Virus record (IMG/VR): IMGVR_UViG_2706796059_000001
DNA: 64,000 nt
Strand: one strand, 5' to 3'
Origin: a virus
Lineage: Duplodnaviria > Heunggongvirae > Uroviricota > Caudoviricetes > Straboviridae
Shown here: in pieces, positions 49,554 to 62,130 of the stretch
Numbering within the stretch: the stretch's first letter is position 1
Layout of the letters: every line of letters begins with the position of its first letter
Notes under the pieces: model-generated
The model's input: the letters and a program-made list of their open reading frames with translations, nothing else
What the model was told of the DNA's origin: nothing
The model's database searches: none
Position numbers and translations under genes: made by a program

Positions 49554-49590
49554 AAAAGATGTTTACAACGATATAAACATCATGTACAAT
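49554..49590 (+). promoter_or_regulatory. tandem second copy of the early promoter, about 85 bp downstream
   Basis: aaaaaaagatgTTTACAacgatataaacatcatgTACAATag. This is a near-exact duplicate of the upstream promoter. Confidence 0.6.
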
Positions 49591-49600
49591 AGAGAAGAAC

Positions 49601-49819
49601 ATGAATGACATAATTAAAGATGTGTCAAAGTTGACACTGAAAGAAAACGAACGTGTAGTGTTTAGAGTTGATGTCGGTGATTTACCAGCATCGAAAGCTA
49701 ATCAGTATATACAAAATTTAGTCGATTTATTGAAAGAAGCGGGAATTACTAACTCAATTGTTATTCCGTCATCAATAGAAATTTCCGTAATCGATGAAAA
49801 CGAATTAATGCGCAAGTAG
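49601..49819 (+). CDS. hypothetical protein (72 aa)
   Basis: ORF downstream of the tandem early promoters. Its stop codon overlaps the first bases of the next tRNA. Confidence 0.5.
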   Translation: MNDIIKDVSKLTLKENERVVFRVDVGDLPASKANQYIQNLVDLLKEAGITNSIVIPSSIEISVIDENELMRK

Positions 49820-49887
49820 CCCAATCTGGCAGAGGCACTGGTCTTAGAAACCAGAAGTTAAGAGTTCGAATCTCTTCTTGCGTACCA
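49810..49887 (+). tRNA. class-I-shaped tRNA with anticodon TAG (Leu CUA/CUG codons), A73, CCA encoded
   Basis: GCGCAAG TA GCCC AATCTGGCAGA GGC A CTGGT CTTAGAA ACCAG AAGTT AAGAG TTCGAAT CTCTT CTTGCGT A CCA. The variable loop is 5 nt. Confidence 0.7.
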
Positions 49888-49888
49888 T

Positions 49889-49963
49889 GCACCCTTAGCT
49901 TATCAGGAAAAGCGGCGGATTGAAGTCCCGCAGTGCTCGGTTCGATTCCGAGGGGGTGCACCA
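49889..49963 (+). tRNA. tRNA-Phe (GAA), CCA encoded
   Basis: GCACCCT TA GCTT ATCAGGAA AAGC G GCGGA TTGAAGT CCCGC AGTG CTCGG TTCGATT CCGAG GGGGTGC A CCA. Confidence 0.8.
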
Positions 49964-50051
49964 TATTATAGCTTGTTTGTAAGAGTTAAATCAAGCAAGG
50001 GATTTTAGTTTTGAGTTATTTAGCAAACGCTCTTAACGTGAAAATCAAATT

Positions 50052-50126
50052 GGGTCGTTAGTATAACGGTAGTACATCTGGCTTTTAACCAGAAGGGTGA
50101 GAGTTCGAATCTCTTGCGACCCACCA
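50052..50126 (+). tRNA. tRNA-Lys (TTT) copy 1, CCA encoded
   Basis: GGGTCGT TA GTAT AACGGTAGT AC A TCTGG CTTTTAA CCAGA AGGGT GAGAG TTCGAAT CTCTT GCGACCC A CCA. Confidence 0.85.
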
Positions 50127-50137
50127 GTTTTTATAAT

Positions 50138-50214
50138 GCGTCGGTAGCTCATCATGGAAGAGCAGGGAGCTTTTAACTCTCAGGTGTCTGGTTCGAGTCC
50201 AGAGCGGCGTACCA
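50138..50214 (+). tRNA. tRNA-Lys (TTT) copy 2, divergent backbone with a 7:66 mismatch, CCA encoded
   Basis: GCGTCGG TA GCTC ATCATGGAA GAGC A GGGAG CTTTTAA CTCTC AGGTG TCTGG TTCGAGT CCAGA GCGGCGT A CCA. Confidence 0.75.
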
Positions 50215-50277
50215 AATTAGATACATTGTATATCGCTTTGCAAGTTAGATAGCTTGCAAATCAATATACAATTTAAT

Positions 50278-50352
50278 TCTCCCGTGGACTAACGGTAGGT
50301 CATCACCCTTTCAAGGTGAAGTGCGCGAGTTCGAATCTCGTCGGGAGAACCA
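50278..50352 (+). tRNA. tRNA-Glu (TTC), CCA encoded
   Basis: TCTCCCG TG GACT AACGGTA GGTC A TCACC CTTTCAA GGTGA AGTG CGCGAG... TTCGAAT CTCGT CGGGAGA A CCA. Confidence 0.8.
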
Positions 50353-50358
50353 TATTCT

Positions 50359-50444
50359 GGAGCGTACGTCTCAAGGTGAGACAGGGGACTGTAAATCCCT
50401 GACCCTTAACGGGTAGAGAGGTTCGATTCCTCTACGCTCCACCA
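50359..50444 (+). tRNA. tRNA-Tyr (GTA), class II with a long variable arm, CCA encoded
   Basis: GGAGCGT ... GGGGA CTGTAAA TCCCT GACCCTTAACGGGTAG AGAGG TTCGATT CCTCT ACGCTCC A CCA. Confidence 0.85.
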
Positions 50445-50546
50445 GTTTTAGCTTGCATACTGCAATTTAACTTAATCTATTGATCGCTCGGCGGGCATTG
50501 CTCAGACAGCGATAAACAGACCAAAGAACGCAAGCTGTTGAATAAT

Positions 50547-50619
50547 TGCGGAGTAGAGCAGCGGTCAGCTCGCCAGTTTCATAAGCTGGAGGTCAGTGGT
50601 TCGAATCCACTCTCACGCA
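50547..50619 (+). tRNA. irregular CAT-anticodon tRNA (Met/Ile2-like) with a one-nucleotide bulge in the acceptor stem, no CCA encoded; possible pseudogene
   Basis: GCGGAG-T TA GAGC AGCGGTCA GCTC G CCAGT TTCATAA GCTGG AGGTC AGTGG TTCGAAT CCACT CTCACGC A. The 5' GCG-GAG pairs with 3' CTC-A-CGC only if the A is bulged. It is preceded by a CGCAAGCTGTTGAATAATTGCG hairpin sharing ACGCAAGCTGTT with tRNA-like gene 2. Confidence 0.5.
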
Positions 50620-50630
50620 TCCAAACAAAT

Positions 50631-50729
50631 GGAAGGCTTAGCCGAAAGATTCTGGGTAGCGGCAACGGTCTTGAAAACCGTCGGTCACCGGGAGGTGATG
50701 TTAGGGTTCGAATCCCTAGTCTTCCGCCA
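50631..50729 (+). tRNA. tRNA-Ser (TGA), class II, with an unusually long D-region (99 nt), CCA encoded
   Basis: GGAAGGC TT AGCC GAAAGATTCTGGGTAGC GGCA ACGGT CTTGAAA ACCGT CGGTCACCGGGAGGTGATG TTAGGG TTCGAAT CCCTA GTCTTCC G CCA. Confidence 0.7.
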
Positions 50730-50792
50730 ATTGGTTAACCGGGAAGTTTAGTCACTTAACCGATTAACAGTGCGCTGAAATGCGCACACTTT

Positions 50793-50866
50793 AGTCCCTT
50801 AGCTCAACGGTAGAGCGTGCGACCGATAATCGCTTGGTAAGAGTTCGATTCTCTTAGGGACTACCA
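50793..50866 (+). tRNA. tRNA-Ile (GAT), CCA encoded
   Basis: AGTCCCT TA GCTC AACGGTA GAGC G TGCGA CCGATAA TCGCT TGGT AAGAG TTCGATT CTCTT AGGGACT A CCA. Confidence 0.85.
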
Positions 50867-50872
50867 AATTTT

Positions 50873-50946
50873 AGGGGCATGATGTAAAGGCAGCATGACG
50901 GATTCCAAACCCGTTCGTTAGAGTTCGAATCTCTATGCCCCTGCCA
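50873..50946 (+). tRNA. tRNA-Trp (CCA), CCA encoded
   Basis: AGGGGCA TG ATGT AAAGGCA GCAT G ACGGA TTCCAAA CCCGT TCGT TAGAG TTCGAAT CTCTA TGCCCCT G CCA. Confidence 0.8.
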
Positions 50947-51020
50947 GTTTAAGTAATCTTACAGCAAACAATACAAAACTTTTATTTGGAAAAAGCAAAA
51001 AGGATTACTGTTTAAATTTA

Positions 51021-51096
51021 GGATCGCTAACTCAATGGTTAGAGTGCTCGCCTGTTAAGCGAGGAGTTCCGAGTTCGAGTCTCGGGCGGTCCGCCA
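51021..51096 (+). tRNA. tRNA-Asn (GTT), CCA encoded
   Basis: GGATCGC TA ACTC AATGGTTAGA GT G CTCGC CTGTTAA GCGAG GAGTT CCGAG TTCGAGT CTCGG GCGGTCC G CCA. Confidence 0.85.
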
Positions 51097-51165
51097 AATT
51101 CGGAGAGTCACTACCGTTAAGTGTGAACTTGAAAAAACAAAGCAACTACTTTAAGTTGTCTTTGG

Positions 51166-51241
51166 GGAGCCGAGGTGTAAAAGGTTGCATGTCTCCCTGT
51201 CACGGAGAAGGTAGCGGGTTCGAAACCCGTCGGTTCCGCCA
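51166..51241 (+). tRNA. tRNA-Asp (GTC), CCA encoded
   Basis: GGAGCCG AG GTGT ... G TCTCC CTGTCAC GGAGA AGGTA GCGGG TTCGAAA CCCGT CGGTTCC G CCA. Confidence 0.8.
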
Positions 51242-51260
51242 AAGATAATTTAAGAACAAT

Positions 51261-51334
51261 TGGGGATTGGTGTAAAGGCAGCATAACGTACTTTGAATGC
51301 GTTGGTATCAGTTCGAATCTGTTATCCCCAGCCA
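51261..51334 (+). tRNA. tRNA-Gln (TTG), CCA encoded
   Basis: TGGGGAT TG GTGT AAAGGCA GCAT A ACGTA CTTTGAA TGCGT TGGT ATCAG TTCGAAT CTGTT ATCCCCA G CCA. Confidence 0.8.
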
Positions 51335-51357
51335 AATACCATAGAGTGTTTTCAGCA

Positions 51358-51428
51358 AACAATTTACTAATATTCTTCTGATGAAAAGAAAAGTTCGGGG
51401 TTCGATTCCTCTTCAGTGTCGGTATCAC
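51358..51428 (+). other. third copy of the TTCAGCAA-N-CAATTTAC-NN-ATAT element, followed by a T-arm-like minihelix fragment
   Basis: ttttcagcaaacaatttactaatattc at 51356-51382 resembles tattcagcaaccaatttacgcatatca at 45571-45597. It is followed by CTGATGA...GGGG-TTCGATT-CCTC-TTCAG. Confidence 0.45.
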
Positions 51429-51463
51429 TGGTCTGGACGACGCTAGTAATAACACTCAGTTAC

Positions 51464-51538
51464 GCTCCTGAAGCATTGATGGCGATGCAGCGGTCTTGTA
51501 AACCGCAGAATTCGGTTCGATTCCGAACGGGAGCACCA
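51464..51538 (+). tRNA. tRNA-Thr (TGT), CCA encoded
   Basis: GCTCCTG AA GCAT TGATGGCG ATGC A GCGGT CTTGTAA ACCGC AGAA TTCGG TTCGATT CCGAA CGGGAGC A CCA. Confidence 0.85.
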
Positions 51539-51601
51539 TATTGATTAGAGAGTGTTATCATGATATAAATATTCATGTAACTACATTTTAGAGGTAATAA
51601 C

Positions 51602-51877
51602 ATGTCTATTAAAACATTTTCTGAATATCTTAACGAAGCAAAGCATCGTGGGTCTGGCGTAGACACTCATGACGGGAAGATTCCGTATGTATACGCTGAC
51701 AGTAAAGACGCTGCTGCATTTGCTGATTTCGTATCGTCAATAGGTATGAAGCTTGATTCGAACGGTGAATTGAAGCTTTCTACACGAGATAAAGTACGAA
51801 AGTTCTTCTCAGAGCTTGATCAAGAAGCAACTAATTTCATGCTTCATGGCAACTTTGATATTATTGAATATATGTAA
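51602..51877 (+). CDS. hypothetical protein (91 aa)
   Basis: ORF with RBS gaggtaataacATG. Confidence 0.5.
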   Translation: MSIKTFSEYLNEAKHRGSGVDTHDGKIPYVYADSKDAAAFADFVSSIGMKLDSNGELKLSTRDKVRKFFSELDQEATNFMLHGNFDIIEYM

Positions 51878-51914
51878 AAATTGGTGATTGTAATGGTATA
51901 TATTTCTGTATGGT

Positions 51915-52103
51915 GTGAATATGACATTGGTGGGGATTTCGGTGGCAACAATAACGAAGATGTTTTTTTCCGTTAGTGAAGAATTATCTAATGAAGAAGT
52001 TGAAGCAAAAGTTGCTGAATATATTTCTGACATTGTTGGTGAGCCGATTGAAGAACTTGAAGGTTTATACGGTTGGGAATATATTTCAATCACACAGTTG
52101 TAA
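51915..52103 (+). CDS. hypothetical acidic protein (62 aa)
   Basis: Short ORF. Weak support. Confidence 0.3.
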   Translation: MNMTLVGISVATITKMFFSVSEELSNEEVEAKVAEYISDIVGEPIEELEGLYGWEYISITQL

Positions 52104-52110
52104 AAAATAT

Positions 52111-52185
52111 GGGCCGTTAGCTTAATTGGGAAAGCGCCTCACTTGCAATGAGGAAGATAGGGTTCGACTCCCTGCGTGTCCACCA
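52111..52185 (+). tRNA. tRNA-Ala (TGC) with G3:U70 but a poorly paired acceptor stem (positions 5-7), CCA encoded
   Basis: GGGCCGT TA GCTT AATTGGGA AAGC G CCTCA CTTGCAA TGAGG AAGA TAGGG TTCGACT CCCTG CGTGTCC A CCA. Confidence 0.6.
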
Positions 52186-52259
52186 AATTTCGAACACATG
52201 AGCGTAGACTCTCTTTACTACCATCGTCTACACTAGCTCATGGTTCGAAACTTTTCAAT

Positions 52260-52335
52260 GCGCTGTTAGCTCAATTGGAAGAGCACGTCCCTTCTAAGGA
52301 TGGGGTTATGAGTTCGAATCTCATACGGCGTGCCA
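52260..52335 (+). tRNA. tRNA-Arg (TCT), CCA encoded
   Basis: GCGCTGT TA GCTC AATTGGAAGA GC A CGTCC CTTCTAA GGATG GGGTT ATGAG TTCGAAT CTCAT ACGGCGT G CCA. Confidence 0.8.
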
Positions 52336-52857
52336 TATTAAGCTCTTATCATGTGACGAATGATACTTTGCTTCGGCATATCACGAGCATGGTGAGAGAG
52401 ACAATATACAGCAAACAATTGAAATTACTTAAAAGAAGTGATGATCTTAACCTGGGCTGATTTTAACCTGAGCTTGCTTGGGCGCAGCTTGAAAGGAAAG
52501 ATTCTCTCTGTCTAGAAATAGTCAGATAGGCGCGTCGCTGAAACAGACGATATTTGCTTATTGATTCTCAATAAGCTAGTCAACTCCGATTTATGCAAAA
52601 GACGAAAAAACACTTCGGTATTGTCTGTACTTAATTCGTCGGAAACGACACTGTAGCCGAAAGGCAAGTTTACTAACTTAGTTGTTAGTCGTGATACAGG
52701 AAGTATCATGTGGCATTATTATGAACGTTTCTAGTCATCGTCATGTAAAACAATCAAAACTAAGCAGAGGTAACAGTACCCACTATGTGGTTCCTCACTC
52801 AGACCATGAATATATGGTGTCAGCCAGTGTGCGATTAAATGAGTAATTACTGCAATT

Positions 52858-52933
52858 GGTGACGTAGCTCAAGTGGCAGAGCCACGCTTTCATACGGCGT
52901 AAGATCCGATTTCGAGTATCGGTGTCACCTCCA
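52858..52933 (+). tRNA. tRNA-Met (CAT), third CAT tRNA, CCA encoded
   Basis: GGTGACG TA GCTC AAGTGGCAGA GC C ACGCT TTCATAC GGCGT AAGAT CCGAT TTCGAGT ATCGG TGTCACC T CCA. Confidence 0.8.
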
Positions 52934-52958
52934 AATTCAAACAAAGAGGTTAAGAAGC

Positions 52959-53116
52959 ATGACTACTTTACACTAAGCAAGGGCAACATACGCGATAAGA
53001 TTCGCTGTGTTGAAAATCGTCTCGCAGAAGAGACCAACCCGTTCTTTATAAGAACACTTACTGTAGAGCTTACGAATCTACGTGCAATACGTGATTTGTT
53101 CGACGCTTCAGATTAA
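52959..53116 (+). CDS. hypothetical small protein (52 aa)
   Basis: ATG at 52959 with RBS aagaggttaagaagcATG. The track ORF starts inside the tRNA. Confidence 0.35.
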
Positions 53117-53120
53117 CAAT

Positions 53121-53194
53121 GCGGGTATGATGTAATGGTAGCATGACGTCCTTCCAAGTCGTTCGTCTCGGTTCGAGTCCGTGTACCCGCTCCA
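53121..53194 (+). tRNA. tRNA-Gly (TCC), CCA encoded
   Basis: GCGGGTA TG ATGT AATGGTA GCAT G ACGTC CTTCCAA GTCGT TCGT CTCGG TTCGAGT CCGTG TACCCGC T CCA. Confidence 0.8.
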
Positions 53195-53200
53195 AATTTT

Positions 53201-53274
53201 GGTCCCTTAGTATAATGGCAGTACGTCTCTTTTACACAGAGAAAGAAGTGGCTCGATTCCACTAGGGACTACCA
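53201..53274 (+). tRNA. tRNA-Val (TAC), T-loop CTCGATT, CCA encoded
   Basis: GGTCCCT TA GTAT AATGGCA GTAC G TCTCT TTTACAC AGAGA AAGA AGTGG CTCGATT CCACT AGGGACT A CCA. Confidence 0.8.
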
Positions 53275-53297
53275 TTCTTTATGATGAGAAATAAATT

Positions 53298-53537
53298 ATG
53301 ACGCCTGCATTACTTGAAACTCATGAATACGTAAACCACAACCAAATCGAAAAGCTACAGCAAATGGACAGACTTATGTTTGATTGTTGGCGTGCTGGGT
53401 ATAAACGTGGCAAGATTTTAGAGCTTGCATTGTCGATTGAGTCTTCAACAACCGAAGCAGACATCGAAATTTATTTCAAAAATATGTTTACAAGAGAACT
53501 ATCGGCTGATAGTATCTACTTAAAGAAAACTGTATGA
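53298..53537 (+). CDS. hypothetical protein (79 aa)
   Basis: ORF with RBS gatgagaaataaattATG. Confidence 0.45.
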   Translation: MTPALLETHEYVNHNQIEKLQQMDRLMFDCWRAGYKRGKILELALSIESSTTEADIEIYFKNMFTRELSADSIYLKKTV

Positions 53538-53689
53538 CGGAGTAGTGCTCCGACCGAATGACACACGCAAATGAGTCCGGTTGACAAACGTTATATGTCC
53601 CAAAGTATTGCAGGTAGCGACGGCGGTGTTGCTAGTAGATTTATCTATTTCTCCAAGACATAATGCAAGCTTTTAAAGTGTACTTTGGT

Positions 53690-53766
53690 GTGGCAGTGGG
53701 TGAAGTGGAAATACCCCCGGGTTGTGATTCCGGAAGATGCGGGTTCGATCCCCGTCTGTCACCCCA
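53690..53766 (+). tRNA. tRNA-His (GTG), C73, CCA encoded; the genomic -1 position is T, not G
   Basis: GTGGCAG ... CCGGG TTGTGAT TCCGG AAGAT GCGGG TTCGATC CCCGT CTGTCAC C CCA. Confidence 0.75.
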
Positions 53767-53776
53767 AAGTACATTT

Positions 53777-53861
53777 ATGCTCGAATCGTATAATGGCAGT
53801 ATGACGGATTGCAAATCCGCAGGTCAGGGTTCGATTCCCTGTTCGAGCTCCAGAAAAGACG
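53777..53861 (+). tRNA. tRNA-Cys (GCA), CCA encoded
   Basis: GCTCGAA TC GTAT AATGGCA GTAT G ACGGA TTGCAAA TCCGC AGGT CAGGG TTCGATT CCCTG TTCGAGC T CCA. Confidence 0.8.
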
Positions 53862-54060
53862 ATGCACAAGTTGGATGTGCAAAGGGGTCGGTTATGGTTC
53901 AACGCTTTATGCGTATAGGGTTAATCGCCTAGAACTGAGCATGTTTGAGTTGCTACTCACGAATGTAGTGATGAGTGCGTAAGAAGCCCGTAGCTAGTAT
54001 AATGAGTTGATAACTCGGCAGCCTAGCAGTGTCGCCAACATCGACATAACGACACATAAT

Positions 54061-54137
54061 GCGCACGTGGTCCAATTGGCAGAGGCATGAGGCTTAAAAT
54101 CTCAGGGATGGCGGTTCGAATCCGCCCGTGCGTACCA
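54061..54137 (+). tRNA. class-I-shaped tRNA with anticodon TAA (Leu UUA/UUG codons), A73, CCA encoded
   Basis: GCGCACG TG GTCC AATTGGCAGA GGC A TGAGG CTTAAAA TCTCA GGGAT GGCGG TTCGAAT CCGCC CGTGCGT A CCA. The variable loop is 5 nt. Confidence 0.7.
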
Positions 54138-54252
54138 AATTCTAGCATAAGCCGCATTCTAACGAAGCTAGACTACCGCCGTTGAAAAACGGTCTCAGCC
54201 GAGCGAAAGCTGACAGGCGTTAGGGATTAAAGAGTTGCGGCAGCTTATTCAA

Positions 54253-54329
54253 GCCCAACTAGTCCAATTGGCAGAGGCGCTAGTTTCAAACACTAGATGA
54301 TCCGAGTTCGAATCTCGGGTTGGGCACCA
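54253..54329 (+). tRNA. class-I-shaped tRNA with anticodon CAA (Leu UUG codon), A73, CCA encoded
   Basis: GCCCAAC TA GTCC AATTGGCAGA GGC G CTAGT TTCAAAC ACTAG ATGAT CCGAG TTCGAAT CTCGG GTTGGGC A CCA. The variable loop is 5 nt. Confidence 0.7.
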
Positions 54330-54497
54330 AATTCACTTAGCAACGCGAATCGAAAGAGAGTGGATAGACCTGCTAAGAGTCCCGCTAGGTCTTTAAATTA
54401 TCTAAAGTGGATCTGCGAAGCGCGTGGCACACGTCAGCAATAAGAGCAAATATGTGTCTGAGCATGAGAGCAGCATGCCACTAATTGATGAGACGTT

Positions 54498-54586
54498 GGA
54501 AGCATGGTCTAAAGGTATGACAGCACCCTGCTAAGGTGTCGGACGTTAATAGCGTTCTCTGGGTTCGACTCCCAGTGCTTCCGCCA
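54498..54586 (+). tRNA. tRNA-Ser (GCT), class II, CCA encoded
   Basis: GGAAGCA TG GTCT AAAGGTATGA C A GCACC CTGCTAA GGTGT CGGACGTTAATAGCGTTCT CTGGG TTCGACT CCCAG TGCTTCC G CCA. Confidence 0.85.
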
Positions 54587-54852
54587 AATTCGCAATAAGA
54601 CATTGTACAGCAATCATTACAAATCAAAGCAAACTTTAATAGTAATGAGGCGCACTAGCTGCTTTCTCAGTGATGACGTGAGCCTGTCGCATTCTCGTGG
54701 TAGGAAATGACCATTAAGACGGTGTTCGTACTGTCAAACGAAATAGGACTCATGCCGAATCATGGGTATTTTTCCGATGAGAAACATCGTTATAGTCAAT
54801 TGAGATTTAAGGAAAGACGATAAAACACTTCTCGAATGTCTGTGTATTGCAC

Positions 54853-54884
54853 AAAAAAACCTGCCGTGAGCAGGTTTTTTTTGT
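54853..54884. terminator. bidirectional rho-independent terminator at the end of the tRNA island
   Basis: aaaaaaacctgc-cgtgag-caggtttttttt. Confidence 0.7.
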
Positions 54885-54896
54885 TTCTTCAAAATA

Positions 54897-54918
54897 AAAA
54901 GAGCCTTTCGGCTCTTTT
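54897..54918 (-). terminator. terminator for the minus-strand fibre-like gene
   Basis: aaaagagcc-tttc-ggctctttt. Confidence 0.6.
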
Positions 54919-56632
54919 ATCGACTAAGCATAAACTCAACCGCAGGGGCTAAGATTGTATTGCCTGAGCTTGTTGTATAAGGCCCAAACGTATCAACTGA
55001 AAAATCATCACCATTTAAATTACGCAATCTAATGCGATAGTAACGACTTGAGTTCATATTCAGAATCGTATCAATTAGAAACATCGAACGATCAGTTTGA
55101 AGGTCATCCATTCTGAACGCTGAGGTTTCTTGAGTAAATGCTGATGCTGTTGTTGTATCAGTAGCCGCAGATTCAACCCACGCTATAATTTCAGGATCTG
55201 AACCTCCACCTGAACGGTCTATACTAACTCTTAGATTTATATGCATCGGTTTATCTTCGAGCGGTCTGAAGTTGTCGGATGTCGATGAATACTCAAACAA
55301 TGCCCCTGTTTCATTTGTTGCTGAAAGTGGGATTGTACCTTCAGAACCAGTTGCATTCAATGTAAGAACGTTAGTATCAGTGTTACTTGATTTTTGGAAT
55401 ATGATATCTTTGTCAGATATGTACCCTGCGTCATTACTCAATTCAGAAATATTATCGCCTGCTACTAACGCGTTCGTTTCCAATGCAGTCACGCGAGTGT
55501 CCACTGCGTCTAATTCTGGTTGAATTACTACTGACTCATCTACGAAACTTCGTATTGTCGGTTTGTTCCATGGAACTGATGTACTTGCGTTACCCCAAAC
55601 TACAACATCTACATTCGGATTTCTCAATTCGACTTCTAGTACGTCCTGTGCTCTTATGTCAAACGGTGGTTCTATTAGAACATCAAATTCACCCGGCGTG
55701 ACATTTATAATCTTAGTTTGGTAATATTCTATTGAATTTTTATATACGATTACATCAACTTCCCCATATGCGTTGACGAAATCAACCACGACTGAGTATA
55801 GCGTGCGATTGTTTGGCATCTGGGCGAGTTCCCAACGTGGATTTGACAGTTGTGCCGACTTGTCAGAATATTCAGCGACTACTTCTGCGGAACGAACTCT
55901 AACTATACCAGTATTTCCTTCATCGTAAGTTTGCCATAATGGATGAAAGCTTATATTGTCAATTATATTTGTGACTGCGATGTTTTGACCTGATGATGAT
56001 ATCTTGTGTGCATTTGCAAGATATAAGTCACCGCTTCCCGACTGTACAGCCGCTAACGAGAATTTGTTTGGGTCATATGCTACTGGGTCGTTTGCGCCGC
56101 GCCAATAGTATGAGCTTGCACGACCTGCGAACTCTTGTACGAATACAGGTAGCCCATTTTTCAATAGCGACTTATTCCCTGAAGTAGAAAAGAACGAGTC
56201 TCTTTCTGCAATTGACGCAAATGGTGGTATAGAACCTTCGCCTGATGGGCCAACTGGACCCGGTATTCCCTCGACAATTCTCTGCGAAATCCACTGCGTT
56301 CCTGTGTATGTTTGTCTTTCTGCTACTGTACCCCCGAGCGAAACGTCTTCATATACGAGGTCAATTGATGATGTAGGGTTATTGACGTAGTAAGCAACCC
56401 ATGATGGGTTTGATGACGCATGAGCGTCTCTTAGAGCTATTGCTGCGTCTCTGTCTCCTGTACCTGCGTCAAATGAATTTGGAGTAATCCCAAGTGGGAA
56501 TGGGGTTAATGAATCCTCTGGGATTATTTCCCATTCTTCATCCTTTCGCCCGTATAATAATCCGTTTACAGGGGCTTCTTCGATATATTGTGGTAGTGAT
56601 TGCCCACCGCCGGGTAAATTAATCGAACTCAT
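54917..56632 (-). CDS. fibre/adhesin-like structural protein with a short collagen-like segment
   Basis: 571 aa. The GIPGPVGPSGEG Gly-X-Y run is collagen-like. The protein is Ser/Thr/Asn-rich and beta-rich, on the strand opposite the tRNA island. Confidence 0.45.
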   Translation of the reverse strand: MSSINLPGGGQSLPQYIEEAPVNGLLYGRKDEEWEIIPEDSLTPFPLGITPNSFDAGTGDRDAAIALRDAHASSNPSWVAYYVNNPTSSIDLVYEDVSLGGTVAERQTYTGTQWISQRIVEGIPGPVGPSGEGSIPPFASIAERDSFFSTSGNKSLLKNGLPVFVQEFAGRASSYYWRGANDPVAYDPNKFSLAAVQSGSGDLYLANAHKISSSGQNIAVTNIIDNISFHPLWQTYDEGNTGIVRVRSAEVVAEYSDKSAQLSNPRWELAQMPNNRTLYSVVVDFVNAYGEVDVIVYKNSIEYYQTKIINVTPGEFDVLIEPPFDIRAQDVLEVELRNPNVDVVVWGNASTSVPWNKPTIRSFVDESVVIQPELDAVDTRVTALETNALVAGDNISELSNDAGYISDKDIIFQKSSNTDTNVLTLNATGSEGTIPLSATNETGALFEYSSTSDNFRPLEDKPMHINLRVSIDRSGGGSDPEIIAWVESAATDTTTASAFTQETSAFRMDDLQTDRSMFLIDTILNMNSSRYYRIRLRNLNGDDFSVDTFGPYTTSSGNTILAPAVEFMLSR

Positions 56633-60119: not shown

Positions 60120-61556
60120 ATGTCAGTATTTATGAACGCAATGCAAACAAACGATTCACGCACAGCAAACGGTGCAGTTACTCACAGCACTTCAGGTAAC
60201 GAGTGTCTAAACTTGTTCTTCGGTATTGCTGCTATGCGTGGCAACGATCAGTCTAAAACACTGTTCGGTCGTGCGTTTGCAGAAAACCCAGAACTAGCGA
60301 CACGCATTCTTTTGTGGTCTCGTGATGTTCGCGGTGGTGCGGGTGAACGTGGTACTTTCCGTACTCTATTCACTAAACTTTGTAATGAACAGCCTGACGT
60401 AGCTCGTGCTGTAATGTCGAAAATTCCAGAACTAGGTCGTTACGATGACTTAATTTCTGCTTTCGGTACACGTCTTGAACAAGATGCGATCACAATGTGG
60501 TCGAACGCAATTGTCAATGACAAGAATGGTCTTGCTGCGAAGTGGTTCCCACGTGAAAACAGCAAAAACGGTCATGTGTTCAAGCGCACAATCAAGTCTC
60601 TTGGCGTGACTGCGAAGCAGTGGCGTAAGATTCTGTCGCTTCTGTCTGACACTGTTGAGCAGAAGATGTGTGCGCAAAAATGGGATGCAATCGACTTCGG
60701 TAAGTTGCCTTCTGTAGCGTCTGCTCGTTATCAACAAGCATTCGGTCGTAACGCTTCAGCTCGTTACACAAGCTACATCGAGTCACTTCAAAAAGGTGAA
60801 GCGAAGATCAACGCTGGCGCATTGTTCCCATACGATGTCGTTAAGAGCGTTAGTCACGGTAATGCGTCTGTAGCGAACGAGCAATGGAAAGCTCTGCCAA
60901 ACTACATGGAAGGTTCTGATGAGCGCATCATCCCTGTTGTTGACGTGTCTGGCTCTATGAGCACGCCAATCAACGCAGGTACTGATCATTCAGGTGTGAC
61001 TTGTAAGCAAGTTGCAATGTCTCTGGGTGTATATGTTGCTGAACGCAACGAAGGCATCTTCAAAGATCAATTCATTTCGTTCTCAAGCGACCCGCACTTC
61101 CACCAGTTGCGCGGTAGCTCATTGAAAGAGCGTCTTGATAACATGAATCGTTCAGGCGAAGACATGAGTACGAACATCGGTAAGTGCTTTGATGTTCTGC
61201 TAGAGCGTGCGAAGCGTGCAAATCTTTCACAAGAAGATATGCCAACCAAGTTGCTTATCATGAGTGACATGGAATTCGATCAAGCAAACACTGGTGGTGG
61301 TTGGTACGGTCGCGGTGAACCTGCGAACTTCGATGCAATCAAAGCCAAGTACGCACGTGCTGGTTATGAAATGCCACAACTGGTCTTCTGGAACATTCGT
61401 GGTCGTCTTGGCAACGTTCCGGTTAAAGCTGGTGAAGCGGGTACTGCACTGGTATCTGGTTGTAGCCCATCTATCTTGACTTCACTGTTGGGTGGTGAGC
61501 TTGAGCCAATCAAGATCATGATGAAAACTGTAGGCGTCGAACGCTACAGCTTTTAA
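60120..61556 (+). CDS. vWA-domain protein of the DUF2828-like phage family (possible Ro60/TROVE-related architecture)
   Basis: 478 aa. The C-terminal MIDAS-type VVDVSGSM...T...D fits a vWA fold. The N-terminal helical region has LLWSRDVRGGAGERGTFRTLF. RBS aggaaatgaacaATG. Confidence 0.45.
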   Translation: MSVFMNAMQTNDSRTANGAVTHSTSGNECLNLFFGIAAMRGNDQSKTLFGRAFAENPELATRILLWSRDVRGGAGERGTFRTLFTKLCNEQPDVARAVMSKIPELGRYDDLISAFGTRLEQDAITMWSNAIVNDKNGLAAKWFPRENSKNGHVFKRTIKSLGVTAKQWRKILSLLSDTVEQKMCAQKWDAIDFGKLPSVASARYQQAFGRNASARYTSYIESLQKGEAKINAGALFPYDVVKSVSHGNASVANEQWKALPNYMEGSDERIIPVVDVSGSMSTPINAGTDHSGVTCKQVAMSLGVYVAERNEGIFKDQFISFSSDPHFHQLRGSSLKERLDNMNRSGEDMSTNIGKCFDVLLERAKRANLSQEDMPTKLLIMSDMEFDQANTGGGWYGRGEPANFDAIKAKYARAGYEMPQLVFWNIRGRLGNVPVKAGEAGTALVSGCSPSILTSLLGGELEPIKIMMKTVGVERYSF

Positions 61557-61592: not shown

Positions 61593-61605
61593 GTAAGAGG
61601 TGAAA

Positions 61606-62130
61606 ATGTTCGATTGGGAAGCGATAGAAACAGCTATCAATAACAGTCATCCAAATAGCACAATATACGTTGGGTGTGATAGTAAGCGTAAAAGTGACAT
61701 GATTAGTTACGCGACTGTGATCATAATTCATCTTGAAGGTAGTAAAGGTGCTCAAGTGTTTAAAGCAGTTGAGACTGAACCTGCATACTTATCATGTAAA
61801 GATGGTATCAGAAGTCGATTGATGAATGAAGTATACAAAGCGGGTGAAACTGCACTAATGGTTAAGCCAATGTGCGGTACTAGAGGCTTTGAAGTTCACG
61901 TTGACATCAACCCTGACCCCACACACAAATCTCACGTTGCCTATAACGAAGCTAAAGGTACTATATTGGGATATGTTGGTCAAGAGCCCGTGTTCAAACC
62001 TGATGCGTTTGCTGCGTCTTGTGCTGCTGATTACGACGCAGTTCGAAGGGCAGATAAAATCGCTAAACGAAAAGAACTTAGACGAGCTAAACGAAAAGCA
62101 AAGAAACAAAAAACAAAAGGGCGCAAATAG
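61606..62130 (+). CDS. hypothetical protein with a Lys/Arg-rich C-terminal tail (possible RNase H-like fold)
   Basis: IYVGCDSK...YATVIIIHL...D pattern is weakly RNase H-like. C-terminal KRKELRRAKRKAKKQKTKGRK. Confidence 0.3.
   Translation: MFDWEAIETAINNSHPNSTIYVGCDSKRKSDMISYATVIIIHLEGSKGAQVFKAVETEPAYLSCKDGIRSRLMNEVYKAGETALMVKPMCGTRGFEVHVDINPDPTHKSHVAYNEAKGTILGYVGQEPVFKPDAFAASCAADYDAVRRADKIAKRKELRRAKRKAKKQKTKGRK

Follow-up and report, generated by a model that had tools for sequence, protein, structure and literature searches.

A 64,000-nt stretch of Straboviridae DNA (IMG/VR virus record IMGVR_UViG_2706796059_000001; hereafter the window) encodes three tRNAs with leucine anticodons (UAG, UAA, and CAA), all of which lack the long variable arm of bacterial leucine tRNAs (tRNA-Leu). 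We conclude that these are phage-borne type I (class I) tRNA-Leu, members of a large and barely documented family that is explained by the known identity rules of leucyl-tRNA synthetase (LeuRS). They are most likely genuine, working leucine tRNAs of an arm-less lineage, charged by the LeuRS of the host through the discriminator base A73 and the core formed by the D and T loops.

A phage genome with arm-less leucine tRNAs only

Bases 49000–55000 of the window were 100% identical to Vibrio phage ValKK3 (NC_028829.1, record positions 198580–204580), a KVP40-like Schizotequatrovirus of the Straboviridae with a genome of 248,088 bp. KVP40 itself matched the same region of the window at 91% identity. 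The ValKK3 record has no tRNA annotation of any kind, and the GenBank record of KVP40 lists the three orthologues, each 77–78 nt long, as tRNA-Leu-1, -2, and -3. ARAGORN detected 26 tRNAs in the window, all within positions 46766–54586.

The three genes lie on the forward strand: tRNA-Leu(UAG) at 49810–49887 (78 nt, variable loop AAGTT), tRNA-Leu(UAA) at 54061–54137 (77 nt, GGGAT), and tRNA-Leu(CAA) at 54253–54329 (77 nt, ATGAT). All were called by ARAGORN and passed the gathering score (29 bits) of the Rfam tRNA model RF00005, with 62.3, 53.5, and 53.3 bits, respectively. The ARAGORN bracket output gave each of them a 7-bp acceptor stem, a 5-bp anticodon stem with a 7-nt anticodon loop and U33, a 5-bp T stem with the T loop TTCGAAT, A73, and an encoded CCA. 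The D stem has 3 bp in all three, with a D loop of 11 nt (12 nt in tRNA-Leu(UAG)). The D arm reads GCC-CAAUCUGGCAGA-GGC in tRNA-Leu(UAG) and GUC-CAAUUGGCAGA-GGC in both tRNA-Leu(UAA) and tRNA-Leu(CAA). A G1:U72 pair closes the acceptor stem of tRNA-Leu(UAG) and tRNA-Leu(UAA), and the acceptor stem of tRNA-Leu(CAA) is entirely Watson–Crick paired. The anticodon loops of the first two are CUUAGAA (with A37) and CUUAAAA (A36A37A38).

The same output confirmed variable loops of 5 nt in each gene, as a sequence-only reading of this DNA had proposed, compared with 12–15 nt in the T4 and Escherichia coli comparators. None of the three has the long variable arm (>10 nt with a stem) of bacterial class II tRNA-Leu, and no long arm is hidden in these genes. 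The island as a whole is not restricted to class I. Three class II tRNAs with long arms, all called by ARAGORN on the forward strand, serve as internal comparators: tRNA-Tyr(GUA) at 50359–50444 (86 nt), tRNA-Ser(UGA) at 50644–50729 (86 nt), and tRNA-Ser(GCU) at 54498–54586 (89 nt), which upholds the class II assignments made in that reading.

We then searched the entire genome for a separate class II tRNA-Leu. The remaining 184 kb of ValKK3 contained no tRNA by ARAGORN or by Rfam at the gathering threshold. Within the window, Rfam added five tRNA-like matches missed by ARAGORN (46133–46246, 46257–46378, 48269–48381, 50548–50619, and 52111–52182); these have defects or inserts in the anticodon arm or acceptor stem. 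None of them is a tRNA-Leu, and none combines a leucine anticodon with a long variable arm. The 248-kb ValKK3 genome therefore encodes no class II tRNA-Leu, an absence that the sequence-only reading had asserted from the window.

Leucine hallmarks and identity elements

The D arm sets the three genes apart from the class I tRNAs around them. D stems of 3 bp were found in the three leucine tRNAs, tRNA-Tyr, and tRNA-Ser(GCU), as well as in tRNA-Asp according to the ARAGORN parse, and the remaining class I tRNAs of the island have 4-bp D stems. The leucine D loops (11–12 nt) are the longest in the island. In its layout (A14, A15, two nucleotides, G18G19, N20, and A20a), the arm, G-Y-C C-A-A-U-U-G-G-C-A-G-A G-G-C, agrees with those of E. 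coli leuZ, leuW, and leuX and of T4 tRNA-Leu. The T4-like D arm and the A73 that had been noticed in the sequence were thus both borne out (T4 GGTCAAATTGGTAAAGGC vs. ValKK3 GGTCCAATTGGCAGAGGC).

Identity determinants reported for E. coli LeuRS are A73, A14:U8, the A15:U48 Levitt pair, G18:U55, G19:C56, U54:A58, and A20a, and the sequence and fold of the long arm are reportedly uncorrelated with leucylation, with arm-less constructs staying active (PMC9976931, PMC6614811). All three phage tRNAs carry U8, A14, A15, G18G19, A20a, U48, U54, U55, C56, A58, and A73, and all combine A73 with a leucine anticodon (A35). The E. coli LeuRS identity nucleotides were invariant across an alignment of 20 arm-less phage tRNA-Leu. 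With the Leu class-II-type D arm and the LeuRS identity set both kept, the three are not anticodon-switched class I tRNAs.

A family defined by its coupling to leucine anticodons

We scanned two collections for this body plan, one of bacterial and archaeal genomes (185,579 species) and one of IMG/VR viral contigs. The scan motif, CAATTGGYAGAGGY-N27-GTTCRA, describes a Leu-type D arm in class I spacing and leaves the anticodon, N48, and N73 unspecified. At least 120 loci were obtained from each collection, and the counts that follow are among the matches listed. The bacterial and archaeal matches had leucine anticodons in 121 of 121 cases (70 UAA, 21 CAA, 20 UAG, five CAG, and five GAG), with A73 in 119 of 121 and U48 in 120 of 121. 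The viral matches had leucine anticodons in 120 of 120 cases (62 UAG, 24 CAA, 23 UAA, five CAG, four AAG, and two GAG), with A73 in 113 and U48 in all 120. Among the 241 matches listed from the two collections, all six leucine anticodon types occurred and no non-leucine anticodon did, which identifies the motif as a leucine body. The three ValKK3 genes belong to this family: They have the family's D arm (G-Y-C-C-AAUUGGYAGAGGY) in class I spacing, a leucine anticodon, and the 5-nt (rarely 4-nt) variable loop ending in U48.

A home-made covariance model (R1), built from 89 distinct bacterial members only, recovered the phage genes with high scores (75.4, 77.8, and 77.1 bits for UAG, UAA, and CAA). 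The next best tRNA of the island scored 57.1 bits and the others 17–53 bits, and the class II tRNA-Leu of E. coli and T4 scored 50–58 bits.

Arm loss is specific to leucine. At the viral loci found by the motif scan, tRNA-Leu genes were short in 178 cases and long in 21 among the matches listed, tRNA-Ser genes were long in 76 and short in two, and tRNA-Tyr genes were long in 29 and short in five. The bacterial loci carried a solitary arm-less tRNA-Leu in 102 of 120 listed cases, and the rest had further tRNA genes, with up to 30 per 8-kb locus. Solitary genes came mostly from Actinobacteria, including Nocardia, Gordonia, Mycobacterium, Corynebacterium, and Arthrobacter (among the matches listed). 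Such widespread occurrence is at odds with the published description of type I tRNA-Leu as a rare feature of some Streptomyces (PMC6614811). The D arm of the solitary actinobacterial genes (loci L018–L137; e.g., L047 of Nocardia asteroides and L061 of Corynebacterium tuberculostearicum) was invariant (GCCCAATTGGCAGAGGC), and their anticodons were mostly UAA and also CAA and UAG in the listed set.

Conservation and relatives

Both the bacterial and the phage members retain their helices through compensatory change. In the alignment of the 89 bacterial members, 99.3% of cells were paired and 391 double-sided changes were counted, a level reached by none of 500 shuffles. The 20 phage members also had 99.3% of cells paired, with compensatory change in 18 of 20 pairs, including all three D-stem pairs (0 of 500 shuffles).

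Relatives in the KVP40 group have nearly the same genes. tRNA-Leu(CAA) is 100% identical in KVP40, nt-1, and phi-pp2; tRNA-Leu(UAA) is 100% identical in KVP40; and tRNA-Leu(UAG) is 97%–100% identical within the group and 100% in KVP40. Taken together, the three genes are 97%–100% identical in KVP40 and nt-1. The surrounding 6-kb region has 87%–91% identity at 59%–70% coverage, so that the leucine genes are better conserved than their surroundings; the three are probably under purifying selection. The more distant relatives D480, F86, PVA8, and 1.081.O have compensated stem changes, and they too carry only arm-less tRNA-Leu beside long-arm tRNA-Ser and tRNA-Tyr. A comparison with KVP40-like phages, which had been proposed as a check, thus found the relatives likewise arm-less.

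The implication that the architecture might be peculiar to this phage did not survive the wider comparison, as it is common in unrelated phages and in Actinobacteria. Full-length ungapped BLAST matches recovered genes of 74–79 nt annotated as tRNA-Leu in many unrelated phages, among them T5-like Demerecviridae of Klebsiella, Serratia, and Vibrio, Vequintavirinae (Cronobacter phage CR3 and Escherichia phage 4MG), Salmonella phage 41, and phages of Streptomyces, Gordonia, and Pseudomonas. Over 74 nt, tRNA-Leu(UAA) shares 81%–85% identity with tRNA-Leu genes from T5-like phages of Klebsiella. Records with the T4-type 87-nt tRNA-Leu gene numbered 580, nearly all Tequatrovirus-like. A BLAST search of tRNA-Leu(UAA) against 5,426 E. 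coli genomes (28 Gb) gave no match at E ≤ 1, the query being too short for a database of this size.

When we compared tRNAs globally in pairs after masking the variable region and the anticodon, arm-less phage tRNA-Leu ranked first (core 0.75–0.80), with T4 tRNA-Leu at 0.71. The masked identity of the three ValKK3 genes was 0.69–0.71 to the class II tRNA-Leu of E. coli and T4 and 0.70–0.71 to some non-Leu tRNAs; overall identity was not used as an isotype test because it does not separate these two groups. The class-II-type D arm suggests that the three genes may have descended from a class II tRNA-Leu. Descent by in-situ deletion from a T4-type gene is not favored, since the ValKK3 genes have their closest relatives among the arm-less genes of unrelated phages. 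The proposal that the loop ATGAT of tRNA-Leu(CAA) is a relic of the T4 variable arm (CGGAATGATTTCC) has to be given up: orthologue loops read ATGAT, AAGTT, GAGTT, AACGT, or AATGT, with only U48 constant, and ATGAT also occurs in the UAG paralogue of phage PVA8.

A proposed function in leucine decoding

In the mechanism that we propose, a long arm would have been replaced by a 5-nt loop ending in U48, with all known bacterial (E. coli-type) LeuRS determinants retained: the D arm is still of the class II type, A15:U48 still forms the Levitt pair, G18G19 and U55C56 make up the elbow, and A73 remains the discriminator. We infer that the genes are expressed and that the LeuRS of the Vibrio host charges their products with leucine; no aminoacyl-tRNA synthetase is annotated anywhere in the ValKK3 genome, so the charging enzyme would be that of the host. 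A CCA-adding enzyme is encoded at 503–1600 of the window. During infection, the UAA and CAA anticodons would decode UUA and UUG, and UAG would decode CUA plus related CUN codons, with the set as a whole supplementing the decoding of A/U-ending leucine codons. In 184 long open reading frames (ORFs) of ValKK3 (41.2% G+C), TTA, TTG, and CTA account for 19.8%, 21.6%, and 19.8% of leucine codons, so that the codons read directly by the three anticodons make up 61%.

Bacterial tyrosyl-tRNA synthetase (TyrRS) contacts the long arm. The arm would have been lost in tRNA-Leu and not in tRNA-Ser or tRNA-Tyr because LeuRS is the only one of the three enzymes that does not need it, and neutral loss of a dispensable element is our default reason for its absence. 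The sequence-only reading had left two options: either the host LeuRS charges these tRNAs although they lack the arm, or they serve some other identity or function. The identity set, the D arm, and the leucine anticodons in all 241 listed matches favor the first; the second gained no support and is contradicted by the anticodon coupling, the identity set, and the pattern of conservation.

Several observations weigh against this interpretation. E. coli LeuRS reportedly fails on the type I tRNA-Leu(CAA) of Streptomyces coelicolor (PMC6614811), so acceptance of the three phage tRNAs by a gammaproteobacterial LeuRS is not guaranteed. The published identity set also includes the position of an unpaired residue, 47n, a long-arm base that has no counterpart here. 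In ValKK3 and KVP40, tRNA-Leu(UAG) has one extra D-loop nucleotide before G18G19 relative to VH7D, and the placement of G18G19 reportedly makes a difference. In place of the G37 of E. coli leuW, the same tRNA carries A37, and it may therefore decode differently. Finally, the D-arm conservation of the recovered set is partly by construction because the scan motif was derived from these very tRNAs.

With regard to the first of these points, the S. coelicolor substrate is described with C48 and the variable loop ACAGC (PMC6614811), whereas the phage tRNAs keep the U48 of A15:U48, a pair required by E. coli LeuRS. Moreover, the presence of arm-less tRNA-Leu in phages of E. coli K-12, Klebsiella, Salmonella, and Cronobacter would be puzzling if the enterobacterial LeuRS were unable to use them. 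As to position 37, the G37 of E. coli leuW is the site of TrmD m1G37 modification. A37 was also seen in the arm-less UAG tRNAs of tRNA arrays and of Streptomyces phage JXY1, and the solitary actinobacterial ones have G37. A37 in tRNA-Leu(UAG) may reflect independence from TrmD or another way of keeping frame on CUN codons.

It is extremely improbable that the three are class I tRNAs for another amino acid that came by leucine anticodons through drift and would mis-insert a different amino acid or nothing at all. Class I length is indeed atypical for a bacterial tRNA-Leu, and the arm-removed identity to class II tRNA-Leu given above is no higher than that to some non-Leu tRNAs. The D arm, however, is of the Leu (class II) type and not the class I type, and the body goes with leucine anticodons throughout the listed matches, with A73 and U48 kept. 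In addition, the G3:U70 pair of tRNA-Ala is absent, there is no long arm for seryl-tRNA synthetase (SerRS), most other synthetases read the anticodon, and in vitro leucylation has been shown for a homologous type I tRNA-Leu (PMC6614811). We also consider it very unlikely that the genes are decaying pseudogenes or non-translational tRNA mimics, such as decoys for tRNA-targeting defenses. Several aberrant tRNA-like genes do occur in the island, and five pseudo-tRNAs are annotated in KVP40, but the leucine genes fold into perfect cloverleaves (U33, 7-nt anticodon loops, encoded CCA, canonical T loops), are nearly identical across diverged relatives with every helix kept by compensatory changes, and have three complementary anticodons that jointly cover the leucine boxes.

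A further explanation concerns the reason for the arm loss, which may have been adaptive if arm-less tRNA-Leu escapes nucleases that act on the class II variable arm. Host defense effectors or a phage-induced attack would then destroy the class II tRNA-Leu of the host, and leucine decoding by the phage would survive. There are precedents for such nucleases: PtuAB of retron-Eco7 and Septu act on tRNA-Tyr, and T5 tRNA-Tyr escapes by a distinct variable loop (PMC13096335; see also PMC12673091). VapC52 is a further precedent for a nuclease acting on the variable arm of class II tRNAs, and human SLFN11 reportedly cleaves type II tRNAs. Every leucine codon box has a phage-encoded anticodon and almost every amino acid a phage tRNA, in keeping with independence from the tRNAs of the host, and arm-less tRNA-Leu is over-represented in phage tRNA clusters among the matches listed. 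Against this, our literature searches found no report of a bacterial nuclease that targets the variable arm of tRNA-Leu, and the bacterial Schlafen protein that has been studied cuts the anticodon arms of class I tRNAs. The same arm-less family also occurs as solitary chromosomal genes in many Actinobacteria, where selection of the phage type is not obvious, and neutral loss of a dispensable element accounts for the data equally well. We therefore regard adaptive loss as unlikely. The fuller version, in which the nucleases are host effectors of the PtuAB/Septu kind or are induced by the phage and arm-less tRNA-Leu forms a nuclease-proof private decoding channel accepted by gammaproteobacterial LeuRS, would contradict the published claim that type II tRNA-Leu are the only ones charged by E. 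coli LeuRS (PMC6614811), and it too seems improbable to us.

Gene order and other tRNA-like genes

tRNA-Leu(UAG) is followed by tRNA-Phe(GAA) (49889–49963, forward strand, ARAGORN) with a spacing of 1 nt, the same as in the tRNA-Gln/tRNA-Leu pair of T4. Upstream of tRNA-Leu(UAA) lies tRNA-Cys(GCA) (53779–53852, forward strand, ARAGORN), an order that is also that of the E. coli cysT-leuZ operon; the spacer between the two is 2 nt in KVP40. The G1:U72 pair is common to the phage tRNA-Leu(UAA) and E. coli leuZ. Together, the gene order and the G1:U72 pair are a hint that the Cys-Leu(UAA) pair was captured from a bacterial operon. The Cys-Leu order also occurs in Cronobacter phage CR3 (the loci compared were 53779–54137 of the window, 8287–8439 of L001, and 816–988 of L015).

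Three of the additional Rfam matches (46133–46246, 46257–46378, and 48269–48381) are tRNA-shaped genes of 113–122 nt that score 56, 50, and 50 bits with the Rfam tRNA model. They have normal acceptor, D, and T arms and a 42–54-nt insertion in the anticodon arm, and each insertion carries a hairpin with the common motif CUGAYAAG. In the gene at 46257–46378, an Asn-type loop, AUGUUAA, precedes the insertion. The gene at 48269–48381 has CUGUUAA after its insertion, and its 3′ half matches tRNA-Asn of other phages. In KVP40 the three are named tRNA-Pseudo-5, -4, and -3, respectively, and phi-Grn1 labels the third tRNA-Val. This third gene is 100% identical in KVP40, VH7D, phi-Grn1, and R10Z and is better conserved than its flanks. 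The long tRNA-like genes could be stable regulatory RNAs or intron-like tRNAs. Homology to T4 rnaC and rnaD was considered and rejected, as no convincing alignment was obtained despite their equivalent place in T4. A sub-threshold match to the Rfam YrlA (Y RNA-like) model at 46218–46282 (32 bits vs. a gathering score of 69) spans the junction of the first two.

The two other matches resemble ordinary tRNAs more closely. A tRNA-Ala(UGC)-like gene with G3:U70 and an imperfect acceptor stem lies at 52111–52182 (Rfam 44.9 bits, missed by ARAGORN); it corresponds to tRNA-Pseudo-1 of KVP40, and in the relatives D480 and F86 its position is taken by a clean tRNA-Ala. Alanine would complete a tRNA set for the 20 amino acids. 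The gene at 50548–50619 (Rfam 55.1 bits) has a CAU anticodon and apparently one extra base in the 3′ strand of its acceptor stem. ARAGORN missed it in ValKK3 and called the KVP40 orthologue tRNA-Met.

Two neighboring regions are also of interest. An ORF at 44384–44839 (forward strand), annotated "RNA ligase/cyclic nucleotide phosphodiesterase," has a strong Pfam match to the anti-CBASS protein Acb1 (E = 6.8e-46) and lies ∼1.3 kb upstream of the first tRNA-like gene (46133). About 6 kb downstream of the tRNA island, a pair of ORFs encodes a 478-aa "RNA-binding protein" with Pfam DUF2828 and DUF7788 domains (60120–61556, forward strand), followed by a DUF458/RNase H-like protein (61600–62130, forward strand). 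Any connection of the 478-aa protein with the odd tRNA-like RNAs is guesswork.

Discussion

In textbooks and recent reviews, a long variable arm is what marks tRNA-Leu everywhere except in animal mitochondria. The only bacterial exception discussed in the literature that we searched is one Streptomyces gene, described as rare, and almost all bacterial tRNA-Leu are stated to be type II (PMC6614811). In our full-text searches, that paper was the only one to discuss type I tRNA-Leu outside organelles, and our literature searches found no paper remarking on arm-less tRNA-Leu in phages. We find that phages of the KVP40 group carry arm-less tRNA-Leu only and that tRNA-Leu of this architecture is a common component of the tRNA clusters of phages infecting Enterobacteria, Vibrio, and Actinobacteria and of actinobacterial chromosomes. 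This distribution provides natural, evolution-tested support for the idea that bacterial LeuRS needs no arm and that SerRS and TyrRS do, and it clashes, in a way that can be tested, with the reported failure of E. coli LeuRS to charge type I tRNA-Leu. On the practical side, isotype models that expect a long arm may under-score real phage tRNA-Leu. Were arm loss to protect from variable-arm nucleases, it would be a new tactic in the arms race between phage tRNAs and tRNases.

The closest described counterpart is the tRNA-Leu(CAA) of S. coelicolor, which has a 5-nt variable loop and is leucylated both by ScoLeuRS, the single LeuRS of that species, and by human mitochondrial LeuRS; there the number of variable-loop nucleotides matters and not their identity (PMC6614811). 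The phage tRNAs resemble it in having a 5-nt variable loop and in coexisting with class II tRNAs in one cytoplasm. The S. coelicolor gene is chromosomal, however, stands beside type II leucine isoacceptors, and has C48, and A73 is not a determinant. The phage genes have U48 and A73, are the only leucine set in their genome, and would require a gammaproteobacterial LeuRS.

With T4 tRNA-Leu(UAA), the phage genes share a setting in a Straboviridae tRNA cluster, a nearly identical D arm, A73, and the UAA anticodon, but the T4 tRNA is class II (87 nt) with a 15-nt variable region that includes a 4-bp stem. The E. coli isoacceptors encoded by leuZ, leuW, and leuX likewise have a 3-bp D stem, an 11-nt loop, A15:U48, and A73, and differ in their length of 85–87 nt and their long arms. 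Engineered arm-less tRNA-Leu stay substrates if A73 and the D/T-loop interactions are intact (Larkin 2002, Asahara 1998, as cited in PMC9976931). Those minimal E. coli tRNAs are laboratory constructs, whereas the phage tRNAs are natural. Animal mitochondrial tRNA-Leu(UUR) is also a natural class I tRNA-Leu, with identity resting on A73 and A14, yet it has a reduced, floppy body, a dedicated mitochondrial LeuRS, and an unrelated sequence and setting. Last, T5 tRNA-Tyr, which escapes retron-Eco7/PtuAB, is another phage version of a class II tRNA with a variable region unlike that of the host; its arm is altered and not removed, and the benefit, experimental in that case, is a hypothesis for the three leucine tRNAs.

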